This document shows, piece by piece, positions 34,110 through 50,087 of a stretch of 64,000 nt of DNA. The stretch is from Flavobacteriaceae bacterium. Lineage in GTDB: Bacteria; Bacteroidota; Bacteroidia; Flavobacteriales; Flavobacteriaceae. Position 1 is the stretch's first letter. The number at the start of each line of letters is the position of its first letter. A program made the position numbers and the translations under genes. The notes beneath the pieces were generated by a model. It made no database searches, was not told where the DNA came from, and saw nothing but the letters and a program-made list of their open reading frames with translations. The stretch is taken from assembly GCA_030148025.1 (NCBI GenBank), contig JASBUG010000037.1, forward strand, positions 1 to 64,000, written 5' to 3'.

Positions 34110-34804
34110 CCTATAAATGTTTAATTATAGACGATGAGAAACTGGCAAGAGGGCTGATTCAAACACATTTATCACAATTAGATGATTTTGAATTGATAGC
34201 CTCATGTGCCAGTGCAATTGAGGCAAGTAAAATATTGCAAGAAGAAACTATTGATTTATTGTTTTTAGACATTGAAATGCCTGTTTTAAAAGGTACAGAC
34301 TTCTTTAAAAATCTAGTGCATAAACCCAAAGTGATTTTTACAACAGCTTATAGAGATTATGCCGTAGAAGGGTTTGAACTAAATGCTGTTGACTATATTT
34401 TAAAACCTATTACTTTTCAGCGTTTCTTTAATGCCATAGAAAAGTTTAGAGCTTTACAAAAAGGAACTAATTCGGAACCAACTACCGTTACAACTTCAGA
34501 AAATAAAGATGCTTTTATTTATATAAGAAAAGACAGAAAACAGGTTAAGGTGCATTTAAATTCCATTTTATATATAGAAAGCTTAAAGGACTATATTAAA
34601 ATACATTTAGAAGAAGAAACACACGTAACAAAGTCTAGTATATCAGCTTTTGAAGAAAAGTTAGACGCTAGGTTTATTAGAGTGCATCGTTCTTACATTA
34701 TTAATAAAGATAAGATTACAGCCTATACCAAGAATGATGTTGAAATTGGGAAAATTGAAATCCCAATAGGCGACAACTTTAGGGGGAATTTCTCTGCTTT
34801 TTAA
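34106..34804 (+). CDS. LytTR-family response regulator
   Basis: REC domain (LIIDDE...D55 region) plus a C-terminal LytTR domain (IRVHRSYIIN). Confidence 0.8.
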   Translation: MTYKCLIIDDEKLARGLIQTHLSQLDDFELIASCASAIEASKILQEETIDLLFLDIEMPVLKGTDFFKNLVHKPKVIFTTAYRDYAVEGFELNAVDYILKPITFQRFFNAIEKFRALQKGTNSEPTTVTTSENKDAFIYIRKDRKQVKVHLNSILYIESLKDYIKIHLEEETHVTKSSISAFEEKLDARFIRVHRSYIINKDKITAYTKNDVEIGKIEIPIGDNFRGNFSAF

Positions 34805-35945
34805 AAAGATAGCTCAGATGAACAATACTCATACTTAAAAACACGCCTAAATATCCAATAAATAGTAACCACATTGTGGAGGTGTTGAATAATTTGTAGC
34901 TTAGGTTTGGGAACACTAAAACTGCTTCAGAAAAAAGAAAACTAATTATATAGAATACCCAAGTAATTGTATTGACTTTATGTTTTAATTCAACCCAAAT
35001 AAAAGGCACAAAAAGACCTAAGAATAATAGATGTAACCACGCAATTAATAAAAACCTACTCTCAACAACTTGATCAGCCAGATATGGATGACTTCCAATA
35101 ATGTTGCAAGATACAATTAGTAAAAGTGTACCATATAAAAACCGATATGATTTTTGTGTATGGATAAATGCTTTTCTAAATTTTAGAAGTATTACAAATA
35201 ATGCTATCGAACTTATAAATCCAATAAATTGAATGCTCCAGTGATCAAAACTATAATCTAAGGAATGTGCGTAAAGTCCAATAAGAGAAAAGGTAATGAT
35301 ATACACATGTTCCTTTTTAAAGATAACGGCAGATCGCTGAATAAGTATTGCTAATAGCCAAATAAAAAGAGAGCCAAAATATTGAAAATGTAAATAGAAA
35401 AATATGGCTTGTTGGTACCATGGTGATTCTTGCATTTCCATAGCCATTAAAGGACCTAAGCAGTAAGGACCTATAGATGAAATGAAGTGAAAAACAATTC
35501 CTATTTTAACTAACTGGGTTAATGGATTGTTTTTATTGATTCTTTTCCAAAGGCGTATTAAAAAGATATAGCTTACCCATAAATGTAGCGTAGAAAATAC
35601 AATGGAAAACAAAGCATATCCTTGAATAATAAAAGTGATTAACATTCCAAATACACAAACCTGTAGAGCTAGATAATATTTATAGGAACGCTTGTCAATG
35701 CCATCAGTAAAATTTGTCCATAGCAACACTACCAAAGCATTGAACAAAAACCCTAAAAGCATTACGTGTGAATGTGAATGCAATACATTTTTTAAAGGAA
35801 ACCCTGGAAGCTCGCCTGTAAAAGCATAGCGTAAAATAAGACCAATTGCTGCTCCTAAAAACCCCAAAAGTATGGGATAGAACCAGAGTTGTTTTTGTGT
35901 TATATTAGATTTCATTTCTTCGTCATGCTGAACTTGTTTCAGCAT
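34779..35945 (-). CDS. Polytopic membrane protein, possibly NnrS family
   Basis: About 12 TM segments. LHSHSHVMLLGFLFNAL resembles the NnrS WHxHEMxFG motif. The real start may be MKSN, 30 nt downstream. Confidence 0.35.
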   Translation of the reverse strand: MLKQVQHDEEMKSNITQKQLWFYPILLGFLGAAIGLILRYAFTGELPGFPLKNVLHSHSHVMLLGFLFNALVVLLWTNFTDGIDKRSYKYYLALQVCVFGMLITFIIQGYALFSIVFSTLHLWVSYIFLIRLWKRINKNNPLTQLVKIGIVFHFISSIGPYCLGPLMAMEMQESPWYQQAIFFYLHFQYFGSLFIWLLAILIQRSAVIFKKEHVYIITFSLIGLYAHSLDYSFDHWSIQFIGFISSIALFVILLKFRKAFIHTQKSYRFLYGTLLLIVSCNIIGSHPYLADQVVESRFLLIAWLHLLFLGLFVPFIWVELKHKVNTITWVFYIISFLFSEAVLVFPNLSYKLFNTSTMWLLFIGYLGVFLSMSIVHLSYLFKKQRNSP

Positions 35946-35954
35946 CTCACATAT

Positions 35955-36233
35955 TTAATAGTTCAAAGTTTCTAGATTTGGATTTAATTTTCTAATTAAA
36001 TTTAGTTTCCATTCTTTATGCCAATTCTTTAATTGTTTTTCTCTTTTTATTGCTTGTTCAATATCTGTAAACTCCTCAAAATAAATAAGGTCTTTAATTT
36101 GATACTTTTTTGTGAATTTTGATGCGACCTCATCGTAATGTTCATATAATCTTTTGGATAAGTTTGTAGTAACTCCAATATAGAAAGTCGTTCTATACTT
36201 ATTGGTTAATATGTAAATAAAGCTATTTTGCAT
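35955..36233 (-). CDS. Small GIY-YIG nuclease-domain protein
   Basis: IYILTNKYRTTFYIGVTTNLSKRLYEH carries the GIY-YIG motifs. Length 92 aa. It is flanked by palindromic hairpins. Confidence 0.7.
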   Translation of the reverse strand: MQNSFIYILTNKYRTTFYIGVTTNLSKRLYEHYDEVASKFTKKYQIKDLIYFEEFTDIEQAIKREKQLKNWHKEWKLNLIRKLNPNLETLNY

Positions 36234-36266
36234 AGATGCGACCCTGAAACGAGTTCAGGGTGACGA

Positions 36267-36884
36267 TTATAACTGCTTTAATATCTCTTGAAATTTATTA
36301 GCATATTCTTTAATCACGTTCTTATCAAAGTAAGGTTCTTCATCTATTCGTCCAATAACAGTCACATCAGTCATTTTTTTGATGATAGCTTCGGTTGTTG
36401 GATGTTCGTTTCCACTAAAAATAATCGAGATATTAAACCCTTTTTCTTTTAAAGCATTAACGGTTAAAAGTGTATGATTAATACTGCCAAGATAATGCCT
36501 TGAAACTACAATCACTTGATAATTAGGTTTTATAATATCTTGAATAGTGTCTTTATCATTTAAAGGAACTAGTAGTCCACCAGCGCCTTCAATTACCAAG
36601 TGGTTCTTGGTTTTAGGCTCCTTAATTTGCTTTAACTCTATACTCACATTATCAATGTTGGCAGCTGCATGCGGACTCATAGGTGTATGCAAAGCATAAG
36701 AATTAGGGTGAAATATTGACTTAGAATTGGAAATAAAATTCTCAACTTTTCGGGTGTCACAATTATCTAATTCGCCTGCTTGAACAGGTTTCCAATAATC
36801 TGCTTCAAGTGCTTCTGTAACTATAGCTGATGCAACTGTTTTTCCTACCTCGGTCGAAATACCTGTTATAAAAATACGCTTCAT
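36267..36884 (-). CDS. bioD: Dethiobiotin synthetase
   Basis: IFITGISTEVGKTV P-loop with the BioD pattern. Length 205 aa. Confidence 0.85.
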   Translation of the reverse strand: MKRIFITGISTEVGKTVASAIVTEALEADYWKPVQAGELDNCDTRKVENFISNSKSIFHPNSYALHTPMSPHAAANIDNVSIELKQIKEPKTKNHLVIEGAGGLLVPLNDKDTIQDIIKPNYQVIVVSRHYLGSINHTLLTVNALKEKGFNISIIFSGNEHPTTEAIIKKMTDVTVIGRIDEEPYFDKNVIKEYANKFQEILKQL

Positions 36885-37261
36885 TAAAATATGGTTTTAC
36901 AGTCGTTGCAGATATATTTTGTCTTTTCAAAAAAAGGGAACAGCATAAAAAATATATTCTTACGCTCTAGAGGTGCAATCAATGCTCGCGTAGAATTGCA
37001 ATTTGTACAATGTAAAGCATTACCATTTTTGTCTTTTTGATACTCTCTAATGTTGTTGTAGATATCTACAGCTTTTTCAAAGTCATCATTAAAAACAAGT
37101 AATTTCACACCTCCTATGGCTTGACTTATAAGAGGATCGGAATCAATGGTTTTTTCATCCATAAGCATTGTTCTAATGCCTTCCGATTCCAGTTTAGAAG
37201 TGGTTACTTGTGCTTCTGTTGAGTATTCAAAAACAGCCAGTACTTTATAGTTGTCTTGCAT
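36884..37261 (-). CDS. DUF2007-like domain fused to a C-terminal Cys4 zinc ribbon, embedded in the bioF-bioD operon
   Basis: KVLAVFEYSTEAQVTTSKLESEGI...VFNDDFEKAVDIYN has the DUF2007 pattern. It is followed by CTNCNS...CNDC. The stop and start overlap its neighbours. Confidence 0.45.
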   Translation of the reverse strand: MQDNYKVLAVFEYSTEAQVTTSKLESEGIRTMLMDEKTIDSDPLISQAIGGVKLLVFNDDFEKAVDIYNNIREYQKDKNGNALHCTNCNSTRALIAPLERKNIFFMLFPFFEKTKYICNDCKTIF

Positions 37262-42417: not shown

Positions 42418-43677
42418 ATGTTTGCTTTAGTTGATTGTAATAATTTTTATGCTTCGTGCGAGCGCGTATTTAATCCTAATTTACGCCAGAAACCTATTGC
42501 AATTTTATCTAATAATGATGGTTGTGTGATTTCCAGAAGCGATGAAGCTAAAGCATTAGGTTTGCCAATGGGCGCACCTATTTTTAAATGGGAAGGCTTC
42601 TGTAAAGCAAATAACATTAAGGTATTTTCATCAAACTATCCTTTGTACGGAGATATGAGTACGCGTGTGATGAAAATATTAGAGCAATTTACACCAGATG
42701 TTGAGGTTTATAGTATAGATGAATCCTTTTTAGAGTTTAAAGGATTTGATTATGTTGATTTTGATGCATATGGACTCGAAATCCGAAAACGTGTATTAAA
42801 ATGGACAGGAATTCCAACTTGTGTTGGAATAGCTCCAACTAAAGCATTATCGAAAGTAGCCAATAAAATTGCGCGAAAATTTCCTAAAGAAACTAAAGGG
42901 GCTTATGTTATTGATTCAGAAGAAAAGCGTGTAAAAGCACTTAAATGGATACAGCTTAAAGATGTTTGGGGAATTGGTCGAAGGTTGCATAAACGCTTAT
43001 CAGCAAAGGGTTGTAAAACAGCGTATGACTTTGTGCAATTACCAGATGATTGGGTACGTCAGCAGTTTTCTATTACTGAATGGAAGCTTAAAAAAGACCT
43101 TGAAGGTGTTCCTAAGCTTACCTTGGATATGAGAGAAACTAAACGAGCAATCGCTACAACTAGAAGTTTTGATTTTACTTATGATGATATTAATTACATT
43201 AAAGAACGTGTTTCTACATTTGCAGTAACTTGTGCTGAGAAATTGAGGCAGCAACACTCTAGTTGTTATATGATTATTGTAACATTAAGTAGCGATAGTC
43301 ATAAGCGGAATTTAAAACAACATCGAGGGAGTCAAGTTGTAAAATTATCCTACCCAACTGATTCTACATTAACCATAAGTAAGGCTGCTGTAGAAGCTGT
43401 AGAAACTATTTTTAAACAAGGAGTTAAATATAAAAGAGCAGGTGTTATTGTTACAGGTTTAGTGCCTACAGAAAATCATCAGTTGCATTTATTTGACGCT
43501 GAAAATCCTAAGCACAAACCTTTAATGGGAGTTATGGATAAGCTCAATTATAAGTATGGTGATTATAAATTAAAATTAGGTAATCAAGATTTAGAGCGTA
43601 CGTGGAAAATGCGTCAAGAACGATTAACACCTCGATATACAACAAATATTAAAGATATTATAAAAGTAAAATGCTAA
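42418..43677 (+). CDS. umuC: Y-family translesion DNA polymerase (UmuC-like)
   Basis: ALVDCNNFYASCERVF...ILSNNDGCVISRS matches the UmuC/DinB N-terminal catalytic motifs. Length 419 aa. Confidence 0.85.
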   Translation: MFALVDCNNFYASCERVFNPNLRQKPIAILSNNDGCVISRSDEAKALGLPMGAPIFKWEGFCKANNIKVFSSNYPLYGDMSTRVMKILEQFTPDVEVYSIDESFLEFKGFDYVDFDAYGLEIRKRVLKWTGIPTCVGIAPTKALSKVANKIARKFPKETKGAYVIDSEEKRVKALKWIQLKDVWGIGRRLHKRLSAKGCKTAYDFVQLPDDWVRQQFSITEWKLKKDLEGVPKLTLDMRETKRAIATTRSFDFTYDDINYIKERVSTFAVTCAEKLRQQHSSCYMIIVTLSSDSHKRNLKQHRGSQVVKLSYPTDSTLTISKAAVEAVETIFKQGVKYKRAGVIVTGLVPTENHQLHLFDAENPKHKPLMGVMDKLNYKYGDYKLKLGNQDLERTWKMRQERLTPRYTTNIKDIIKVKC

Positions 43678-43688
43678 TAACTGTCAGA

Positions 43689-44047
43689 CTGAGCGCAGTC
43701 GAAGTCCAATGAAATATGAATTTTTATTATGTTTATATATTAAGATGTAATGATGACTCCTTTTATATAGGAATTACAAATAATATAAGTAAACGTTTCA
43801 ATGAACATCAATAAGGACTGGATAAAAATAGTTATACTTATAGCAGAAGACCTCTAATTTTGGAATTTAGCCAAGAGTTTAATGATGTTCTTCAAGCAAT
43901 TTATTTTGAAAAGAAGATTAAAGGATGGACTAGAGCAAAAAAACAAGCACTAATTAATGATGAATGGGATATGCTTAAGATTTTAGCAGAATGTAGAAAT
44001 GCGACACATTGTAAATATAAAGATTCAAGCGCTTCGACTGCGCTCAG
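43689..44047. mobile_element. Roughly 360 bp cassette bounded by perfect 16 bp terminal inverted repeats (CTGAGCGCAGTCGAAG ... CTTCGACTGCGCTCAG), carrying a GIY-YIG ORF; MITE-like
   Basis: The inverted repeats were read directly at 43689-43704 and 44032-44047. The cassette fills the umuC-umuD intergenic space. Confidence 0.55.
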
Positions 44048-44072
44048 CGGGACAAACCGAACAAAAACCTAA
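43716..44072 (+). pseudogene. GIY-YIG nuclease-domain ORF interrupted by an in-frame TAA at 43812-43814
   Basis: MNFYYVYILRCNDDSFYIGITNNISKRFNEHQ*GLDKNSYTYSRRP... The frame is continuous across the stop. It is a paralog of 35955-36233. Confidence 0.55.
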
Positions 44073-44074
44073 AT

Positions 44075-44515
44075 ATGTTAATAAAAGAAACTAAAAACCT
44101 CACGTTCTATACACCAGAAACAGTTAAGGATTCTGGAGCACTATTTTTTGATGCTGGAATTTCAGCAGGATTTCCATCGCCAGCAGAAGATTTTAAAGAG
44201 CATCGTTTATCACTAGATGAAGAACTGATAACTAATAAAGAAGCAACTTTTTTTGCACGTGTTAGCGGTCAATCAATGATCAATGCTGGATTAGATGATA
44301 ACGATTTATTAGTGATAGATAGAAGTCTGGAACCTACTCATAACAAAATTGCTGTTTGTTTTTTAGATGGAGAGTTTACCGTAAAACGGTTAAAAGTTGA
44401 AAATGATGGTGTTTGGCTACAACCTGAAAATGAAAATTACCAACCTATAAAAGTCACAGAAGAAAACAATTTTGTTATTTGGGGAATTGTTACAAATGTG
44501 ATAAAAAAAGTATAA
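44075..44515 (+). CDS. umuD: UmuD/LexA-like S24 peptidase
   Basis: An Ala-Gly cleavage site (ISAGFP), Ser nucleophile (SGQSM) and Lys (TVKRLK). Confidence 0.8.
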   Translation: MLIKETKNLTFYTPETVKDSGALFFDAGISAGFPSPAEDFKEHRLSLDEELITNKEATFFARVSGQSMINAGLDDNDLLVIDRSLEPTHNKIAVCFLDGEFTVKRLKVENDGVWLQPENENYQPIKVTEENNFVIWGIVTNVIKKV

Positions 44516-50056: not shown

Positions 50057-50087
50057 CTAAAAAACCCAGAACAAAATTCTGGGTTTT
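50057..50087 (-). terminator. Rho-independent terminator of the SGNH lipoprotein gene
   Basis: An aacccagaa / ttctgggtt stem with a U run on the minus strand. Confidence 0.6.

Follow-up and report, generated by a model that had tools for sequence, protein, structure and literature searches.

A probable flavobacterial SRM-ssn-SRM unit in the biotin operon: an Ssn-family GIY-YIG nuclease gene between outward-tagged hairpins

Introduction

The Ssn proteins are GIY-YIG nucleases of which enzymes have been characterised in Neisseria and Wolbachia only (Chenal et al., Nat Commun 2025, PMC11893778). In Neisseria the dRS3/NTS repeat (CGTCATTCCCGCGMAVGCGGGAATCYRG) flanks ssnA, a gene for a 94-aa single-domain GIY-YIG protein, and SsnA binds the repeat hairpin as single-stranded DNA (ssDNA) only, cuts a few nucleotides 5' of it and is inactive on double-stranded DNA (dsDNA) and RNA (PMC11893778). 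Cleavage requires the three nucleotides before the NTS palindrome (GTC), binding requires the C after it, and the substitutions Y6A, Y17A and E64A abolish cleavage; in N. meningitidis, SsnA cuts transformation by NTS-bearing DNA about fivefold (PMC11893778). There are thousands of Ssn homologs (CDD cd10448), the majority flanked by 'Ssn-related motifs' (SRMs), and the NTS-ssnA-NTS layout has been likened by its authors to an insertion sequence (IS) or to a RAYT/REP system (PMC11893778). Here we describe a locus that is very probably a flavobacterial SRM-ssn-SRM unit, i.e. an Ssn-family nuclease gene with two cognate SRMs that form an inverted pair with their CGTC tags pointing outwards. It lies in a 64,000-nt stretch of DNA, hereafter the window, from a Flavobacteriaceae bacterium (assembly GCA_030148025.1, contig JASBUG010000037.1, positions 1 to 64,000).

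The second closely related system is that of the CGTC-tagged repetitive extragenic palindromes (REPs), which have stems of 8-9 bp, loops of 4-5 nt, an A:T first pair and frequent heterodimers (Di Nocera, De Gregorio, Rocco 2013, PMC3733652). Known from Proteobacteria, Chlorobi, Bacteroidetes and further phyla, such REPs were judged to be without a transposase of their own (PMC3733652).

A GIY-YIG gene between two tagged hairpins

Four features make up the module:

35921 to 36265, minus strand: whole SRM-ssn-SRM module from CGTC tag to CGTC tag, 345 bp, delimited by the outward-tagged inverted repeat and by the duplicate boundaries in the Tenacibaculum locus L035 (see below)
36240 to 36265, minus strand: upstream SRM hairpin, 'ACCC type' (CGTC 36265-36262, palindrome ACCCTGAACTCGTTTCAGGGT 36261-36241, C 36240)
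35955 to 36233, minus strand: ssn gene, intact, for a 92-aa single-domain GIY-YIG nuclease (Pfam PF01541, E=1.6e-15)
35921 to 35946, plus strand: downstream SRM hairpin, 'ATGC type' (CGTC 35921-35924, palindrome ATGCTGAACTTGTTTCAGCAT 35925-35945, C 35946)

A sequence-only reading of this DNA had placed the GIY-YIG open reading frame (ORF) between two palindromic hairpins, and both do have perfect 8-bp stems and 5-nt loops. It positioned hairpin 1 correctly (ATGCTGAACTTGTTTCAGCAT at 35925-35945) but hairpin 2 was off by one: given as 36240-36260, it is found at 36241-36261 (ACCCTGAAACGAGTTCAGGGT in plus-strand letters). The two ends of the module follow one grammar, with an unpaired CGTC tag on the outer side, a palindrome that starts with an A:T pair and a C immediately after it, 26 nt in all. 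Together they form a 27-nt inverted repeat, TCGTCATGCTGAACTTGTTTCAGCATC at the left end on the plus strand and TCGTCACCCTGAACTCGTTTCAGGGTC at the right end as its reverse complement, in which TG on the left answers to CC on the right, T to C and CA to GG; the four stem differences amount to two compensatory pairs.

Folding z-scores of the two hairpins against shuffled controls range from -3.2 to -3.8. The motif CTGAA-N5-TTCAG has two matches in the 64 kb, both at the module hairpins, where 0.08 are expected and none of 100 shuffles yields two or more, and a scan of the window for any GTC-tagged perfect hairpin returns the module pair only. A site at 50064-50084 (ACCCAGAACAAAATTCTGGGT) was considered as a third copy and rejected, as it has no CGTC tag and its terminator-like stem stands between an A tract and a T tract. 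Rfam reports nothing in the whole window at gathering thresholds, and a permissive scan of 35800-36400 gives chance-level matches only.

Probable membership of the Ssn family

The window protein is matched by the Pfam GIY-YIG model over residues 4-78 and has no additional DNA-binding domain. A protein search returned 1475 homologs, almost all of 92-93 aa and from Flavobacteriaceae. The SsnA used for comparison came from a tblastn search of a plasmid collection (N. gonorrhoeae NZ_CP119140.1, locus L081:601-885); this 94-aa ORF is taken as the gonococcal ssnA ortholog because it has Y6, Y17 and E64 and is surrounded by canonical NTS repeats. The accession is itself a curiosity: listed among plasmids and almost unannotated, it is the whole N. 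gonorrhoeae chromosome of 2.17 Mb. BLASTP aligns the two proteins at 42% identity over 79 aa (E=7e-24), with window residues Y7, Y18, R28, H32 and E65 opposite gonococcal Y6, Y17, R27, H31 and E64. Searched by sequence, the PDB yields only distant UPF0213 GIY-YIG proteins (E=0.003), and NCBIfam has no family-specific model, its only matches being sub-threshold ones to a group-I-intron endonuclease (27.7 versus a 56-bit cut-off) and to UvrC.

The likeness to the Neisseria system extends over both partners. In each case the gene encodes a GIY-YIG protein of some 92-94 aa and one domain, whose catalytic Tyr, Tyr and Glu align, and has on either side a hairpin made up of an HGTC tag, a palindrome that opens with an A:T pair and a following C; further copies of the repeats are scattered singly and in clusters, and proteins and repeats come in paired subfamilies, two of them in the window. 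The stem-loop is different, CTGAA-CTTGT-TTCAG here versus TTCCCGCG-MAV-CGCGGGAA in Neisseria, and so is the setting, with a marine flavobacterial host, biosynthetic operons, few repeats in the window and an activity that is predicted from the characterised enzymes.

Several points weigh against the assignment. The published SRM pattern, HGTCWYN(0-2)YYVSBRHN(0-5)WNVSBRGN(0-2)RNCYNB, has no match in the window, and in 80 loci around homologs of the window protein it has one chance-like match versus seven in the 1.4-kb Neisseria locus, so that the proposed SRM equivalence appeals to a shared grammar and not to the published SRM definition. The ssDNA specificity of a Bacteroidota Ssn would likewise be an extrapolation at 42% identity. 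Only two SRMs are present in the 64-kb window, and the source genome may be without the dispersed repeat population seen in relatives. Lastly, the tags point outward here and around a Novosphingobium plasmid homolog (flanked by CGTCGCCCCGTGCTTGACACGGGGC) but inward in the NTS pair nearest to ssnA at L081. We nonetheless keep the locus in the family because the published string is a search aid derived from 29 genomes and not a family definition; the flavobacterial stems are richer in AT than those behind it. The system to which the locus is assigned is thus an already published one, and the flavobacterial repeat is a variant outside its published pattern.

Conservation of the hairpin pair across homologous loci

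The set of 80 genomic loci fetched around homologs of the window protein comprises 448 kb, and about 70 of the 80, from many genera, have the same hairpin-ssn-hairpin layout with outward tags. The consensus upstream of the homologs is CGTCACCCTGAACTTGTTTCAGGGTCRCA, 10-20 nt before the ATG, and that downstream is GAGATGCTGAAACAAGTTCAGCATGACG, directly after the stop; the layout persists at 54-60% protein identity in Cyclobacteriaceae, Saprospiraceae, Bacteroidales and Chloroherpetonaceae. Hairpins can be oriented by the GTC tag, which is present on one side only in 270 of 300, and conservation of the C that follows the palindrome is about 90%. The tag points outward in 54 of the 59 hairpins within 60 nt upstream of the gene, where it is on the coding strand, and in 56 of the 64 downstream, where it is on the other strand. 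Stem types are distributed by rule as well, with the ACCC type upstream and the ATGC type downstream, or swapped in a lineage at the trpB-trpA junction. This conserved rule replaces the idea of a random compensatory change between the two window hairpins.

Covariation was assessed on the 294 matches in the 448 kb to GTC-N5-GAA-N5-TTC-N5-C, a pattern that does not require pairing. All five free stem positions form Watson-Crick pairs in 239 of the 294 hairpins, versus 69 after shuffling of the partner arms, and the pair types number three at stem position 2, four at position 3 and two at position 5. As the free positions pair far above the level of shuffled arms, the stem is evidently under selection as a structure, and since loop, tag and trailing C are conserved, there is selection on sequence too. 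The family of small GIY-YIG elements with hairpin ends that the sequence-only reading had suspected is real and large.

The hairpins as a dispersed, REP-like repeat

The 80 loci hold 300 hairpins, about 114 of them within 50 nt of ssn ORF ends and more than 130 beyond 100 nt. The distant hairpins occur as solo copies, doublets and arrays, with alternating ACCC/ATGC arrays in L034, L054, L061, L064 and L069. On contigs of the IMG/VR viral collection (phage or host fragments; L164-L283) the flavobacterial SRM pattern is found in at least 120 stretches; among the matches listed there are 243 tagged hairpins and an ssn ORF in two stretches only, and the commonest arrangement in these listed stretches is a forward-reverse doublet 30-60 nt apart. 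Because many hairpins lie far from the gene and the viral-collection contigs are nearly always without it, we regard the hairpins as a REP-like dispersed repeat. The sequence-only reading had set its proposal against the prospect of ordinary hairpins that stand beside unrelated genes and have no tie to GIY-YIG ORFs genome-wide: they do stand beside unrelated genes, but the association with the GIY-YIG gene and the orientation rule are very strong.

In the 80 loci the repeats have the CGTC tag, the 8-bp A:T-first stem, the 5-nt loop, the dispersed copies and the heterotypic pairs of CGTC REPs. More broadly, the two have in common the tag, a stem of 8-9 bp, a 5-nt loop, pairs of two stem types and an occurrence in Bacteroidetes and Chlorobi. 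They differ in gene content and in geometry: a GIY-YIG gene sits within the pair here, as in Chenal 2025, where PMC3733652 found no dedicated enzyme, and the ssn unit and the doublets seen most often here have a tail-to-tail order, where PMC3733652 has mostly head-to-head pairs.

Repeats of this kind also appear within coding sequence. The reading frame of bioF runs through SRM-like sequences in several genera (L006, L021, L004), at one and the same position on the protein surface: LDCAQGD...MLNQVQH makes up an insertion of about 25 aa in BioF of L006 (around 2180-2280), MLKRVQHD stands in place of MIDRVSNG in L021 (around 2268) with the length of BioF unchanged, and L004 reads LLHFVRND. Rickettsia palindromic elements likewise reside within genes, and the bioF cases call them to mind. 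The hairpins translate as DPETSSG, DAETSSA or MLKQVQHD at the ends of many ORFs in related loci, and translated hairpins are a likely source of annotation artefacts in Bacteroidota.

Operon position, insertion and duplication

The module lies between two co-oriented neighbours:

36267 to 36884, minus strand: bioD (dethiobiotin synthase), upstream co-oriented host gene (Pfam AAA_26, E=1.9e-54)
34779 to 35915, minus strand: downstream host gene for a multi-pass membrane protein, probable start 35915, with an ortholog between bioD and bioA in L005

The fit is tight. One nucleotide separates the bioD stop from the right-hand tag, 7 nt lie between the upstream hairpin and the ssn ATG, and the left-hand tag is 5 nt from the probable ATG (35915) of the membrane-protein gene. 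Since the 1 + 7 nt to spare around the upstream hairpin leave no room for a promoter of its own, ssn is presumably co-transcribed from bioD. The listed start of the membrane-protein ORF at 35945 (MLKQVQHDEE...) is a spurious read-through of the left hairpin, and the true start is probably ATG 35915. The protein has no Pfam match at E<=0.01 to back its earlier label, 'NnrS-like'.

Mapping of the window's BioF, 125-aa ORF, BioD, BioA and membrane protein onto the loci shows that the order bioF, 125-aa ORF, bioD, ssn is syntenic across genera. Within the biotin operon the ssn lineage is always co-oriented with its neighbours, and the junction that it occupies varies by locus (a second lineage, in trp operons, closes the list):

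bioD-bioA junction: about 24 loci
bioF-bioD junction: L004, L005, L006, L012, L021
bioF-125-aa ORF junction: L018, L032
125-aa ORF-bioD junction: L046
after bioA: L007, L009, L010
two module copies in one operon: L010, L026, L035, L042
trpB-trpA junction, second lineage: 14 loci

A comparison across genera for presence and absence, of which the sequence-only reading had called for a version among strains, finds the unit present or missing at tight bio and trp junctions. Empty junctions leave 0-8 nt between the genes (TAAtcATG, an ATGA overlap, TAAATG), and filled ones read TAA, CGTCACCC, ssn, GCATGAC(G) and, further on, ATG. In the Tenacibaculum locus L035 two copies are about 95% identical, and the module ends are defined at the tags because the similarity of these copies begins precisely at CGTC and stops precisely at GACG; the ends of the L035 copies show no target-site duplication. 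ORF-less doublets are found in L009 (1535-1670, at bioD-bioA, with both SRMs intact) and in L035 (3380-3420, after copy 2). Both SRMs and the very beginning of ssn are all that these doublets retain, which suggests derivatives that arose by internal deletion, analogous to REPINs or miniature inverted-repeat transposable elements.

In a neighbour-joining tree, built from 92 residues and without support values, the copies group by host genus and not by junction. Identity of ssn to the window copy is 75-83%, like that of BioD (72-80%) and above that of BioF (57-65%). The median dN/dS of ssn is 0.125 (196 pairs, dS <1.5), and a ratio of about 0.13 indicates purifying selection, with premature stops in at least five of the 80 copies. 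The ssn lineage has the appearance of a long-term resident of the RAYT kind rather than of an element that is actively homing. Of IS anatomy the unit has terminal inverted repeats that bound it at different sites; its sole ORF is a GIY-YIG hydrolase of no known transposase class, and no duplication accompanies the L035 ends. On these comparisons, the best-supported view is that the module is a discrete unit which was inserted and duplicated in the past and is now mostly vertically inherited. The earlier suggestion that such units home into intergenic regions thus holds for past insertion, which the filled and empty junctions show, but homing by the nuclease itself is a proposal only.

Three side observations concern the operon. 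In a Lutibacter metagenome-assembled genome the bioD-bioA junction (L021:3940-4020) holds two inverted copies of a different repeat, similar to the Neisseria NTS (TGTCATTCCTGCGAAAGGAGGAATCC and partner), with no ORF between them, so that several SRM types appear to be drawn to one junction. Motifs resembling the TAnnTTTG-like Bacteroidota -7 promoter element (e.g. cttactacttttgtttta) stand directly upstream of the downstream host gene in L035:2150-2230, L046:3300-3360 and the flanks of L018, and could restore expression of that gene after an insertion. The 125-aa ORF between bioF and bioD (36884-37261, minus strand) has two CxxC pairs (HCTNCNS, ICNDCKT) and is kept at the same position in many Flavobacteriaceae bio operons at 37-73% identity; no Pfam entry is recorded for its exact copy on contig L083.

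A decayed module of a sister subfamily

The window contains a second module:

43682 to 44054, plus strand: decayed sister-subfamily module, left SRM-like end TGTCAGACTGAGCGCAGTCGAAGTCC at 43682-43707, right end at 44029-44054 on the minus strand

The sequence-only reading had taken the copy at 43.7 kb to be related to the biotin-operon unit. Aligned with each other, the two encoded proteins are 40% identical (E=8e-13), and that of the 43.7-kb module is 33% identical to SsnA (E=2e-9). Its ORF starts at 43716, has an in-frame TAA at 43812-43814 and, the normal stop being lost, reads into the right-hand repeat (tail SSASTALSGTNRTKT). The module is co-oriented between an umuC-like gene (42418-43677) and an umuD-like gene (44075-44515), which belong to one operon. 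A metagenome scan yielded 80 loci with homologs of the 43.7-kb protein, nearly all with TGTCAGGCTGAGCGCAGTCGAAGCCC upstream and TGTCACACTGAGCGCAGTCGAAGTGC, as its reverse complement, downstream. The repeat of this type reads TGTCA-stem-GAGCGCAGTCGA-stem-C, and its outer stems covary (GGCT/AGCC, CACT/AGTG, CCTC/GAGG, GGTC/GACC). Judged by these alignments and flanks, the 43.7-kb module has decayed and belongs to a sister subfamily that has a hairpin type to itself, so that the suspected kinship is upheld as that of a second subfamily, with conserved hairpins in nearly all 80 metagenomic loci.

Possible mechanism and alternative explanations

By analogy with the Neisseria and Wolbachia enzymes, the flavobacterial Ssn protein would bind the SRM hairpin in ssDNA only, reading both the sequence and the structure of the stem, and would cleave that strand by hydrolysis, a few nucleotides to the 5' side of its tag, with no action on dsDNA or RNA. 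Given outward tags, each strand would be cut immediately beyond the end of the unit, an arrangement that would suit excision or copying. The gene would be transcribed by read-through with the biotin operon, and its cellular role may be the cutting of incoming ssDNA or the spreading of repeats. Any mobility would need host recombination or replication, because a hydrolytic GIY-YIG enzyme cannot rejoin DNA on its own.

Two accounts of what the unit is for deserve serious consideration, and we would put neither at even odds. The first is a domesticated host function, in which the nuclease restricts or trims incoming SRM-bearing ssDNA (from transformation, conjugation or ssDNA phage) or processes hairpins at replication forks, and the flanking hairpins are merely the nearest genomic targets. 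It is a credible candidate, if one that we expect to fail somewhat more often than not. It agrees with the fivefold, NTS-dependent transformation effect in Neisseria (PMC11893778), with the strong purifying selection on ssn and its vertical inheritance, and with the many viral-collection contigs that carry SRMs. It sits less well with the small number of self targets, two flanking SRMs in 64 kb, and leaves the strict outward tags and the duplication of an exact unit unexplained; natural competence, moreover, is not established for these Flavobacteriaceae.

The second account is that of an autonomous mobile element, in which the GIY-YIG protein itself drives homing or transposition of the hairpin-ended unit by cutting ssDNA at SRM-bearing or empty sites, followed by recombinational copying, with the ORF-less doublets as non-autonomous, REPIN-like forms. 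This we hold to be doubtful. The IS-like anatomy, the duplicate boundaries exactly at the tags in L035, the tight empty junctions, the deletion-derivative doublets in L009 and after L035 copy 2, the multiple copies in some genomes, the pseudogenes (at least five of 80) and the dispersal of SRMs without the gene, on viral-collection contigs included, are all what such an element might leave behind. In Tenacibaculum, three bio-operon junctions are occupied and the copies cluster by host and not by junction, and the IS analogy was raised by Chenal et al. (PMC11893778). Against this, GIY-YIG enzymes hydrolyse DNA and strand transfer is not known for them, no target-site duplication is visible in L035, and the lineage stays in one operon across many genera, is conserved like BioD and has a dN/dS of 0.125. 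Recombination of SRMs with one another by the host, or a rearranged operon, could also account for the switching of junctions, and the clustering comes from a 92-residue tree without support values.

Comparison with other hairpin-associated nucleases delimits what kind of element this might be. With the RAYT/REP-REPIN systems (Nunvar 2010; Bertels and Rainey 2011) it has in common one or a few vertically inherited nuclease genes flanked by recognised hairpins, dispersed repeat doublets, recognition of hairpins in ssDNA (predicted here by analogy) and long-term residence; a hydrolytic GIY-YIG enzyme takes the place of the HUH/Y1 transposase with its covalent intermediate, and a CGTC tag that of GTAG. 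With IS200/IS605 it shares small size, subterminal hairpins that would again be recognised as ssDNA and the lack of a target-site duplication, but its catalytic family has no relation to theirs, its two ends mirror each other as a true inverted repeat where those of IS200/IS605 are asymmetric, and its transposition is only a proposal. Free-standing GIY-YIG homing endonucleases (I-TevI, Seg proteins) have the same catalytic domain and a similar link to insertion polymorphism, but they possess a separate DNA-binding domain and cut dsDNA at the gene-less allele, whereas here there is a catalytic domain only, and hairpin ends.

Tentatively, we put forward the SRM-ssn-SRM unit as a self-propagating element of a mechanistically new kind, in which nicks outside the tags would be followed by copying of the unit or of doublets, through host recombination or replication, preferentially into the stop/start gaps of co-transcribed biosynthetic genes; as a speculation it has the odds clearly against it.

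A role of the hairpins at the RNA level is improbable. On this account they would be terminators, attenuators or mRNA-stabilising 3' structures of the biotin operon that stand beside a GIY-YIG ORF by coincidence, and it is true that both are stable as RNA (-9 to -13 kcal/mol), that both lie at gene ends and that 3'-untranslated region effects are documented for E. coli REPs. An intrinsic terminator can be rejected, as neither hairpin is followed by a T tract on either strand and neither was listed by a terminator scan, and the positions inside operons (bioD-bioA, trpB-trpA) are ones where termination would be harmful. With the CGTC tag on opposite strands at the two ends, each transcript would contain one sense and one antisense motif. 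Furthermore, loop and stem sequence are conserved across genera, not pairing alone, and the same grammar is recognised by SsnA as ssDNA and not as RNA (PMC11893778). Chance palindromes of AT-rich intergenic DNA, which have only the short length of the hairpins in their favour, are refuted by two occurrences against 0.08 expected and by the same sequences flanking homologs in about 70 of 80 loci of different genera.

Significance

The main discovery, that of the Ssn/SRM system, is already published, and what is new here are the flavobacterial repeat variants, the habit of residing at operon junctions and the exact boundaries of the unit. The system extends to marine Flavobacteriaceae and other Bacteroidota with at least two protein/hairpin subfamilies, each of which could supply ssDNA-cutting tools with a new sequence specificity. 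Because the published pattern misses the Bacteroidota repeats, the proportion of Ssn genes reported as 'without SRM' is probably an underestimate. The hairpins also explain recurrent spurious peptide heads and tails in Bacteroidota annotations, such as MLKQVQHD and DPETSSG.

The exact duplicate boundaries, the filled and empty junctions and the ORF-less doublets constitute the clearest evidence yet at the sequence level for a discrete insertion unit, a behaviour that the original authors had only hypothesised (Chenal et al.). If the self-propagating mode outlined above were true, the CGTC REPs would descend, in the manner of REPINs, from a GIY-YIG 'REPtron', whose nuclease would be the dedicated enzyme that had eluded Di Nocera et al., and the unit would ride on operon transcription at the junctions of biosynthetic genes.

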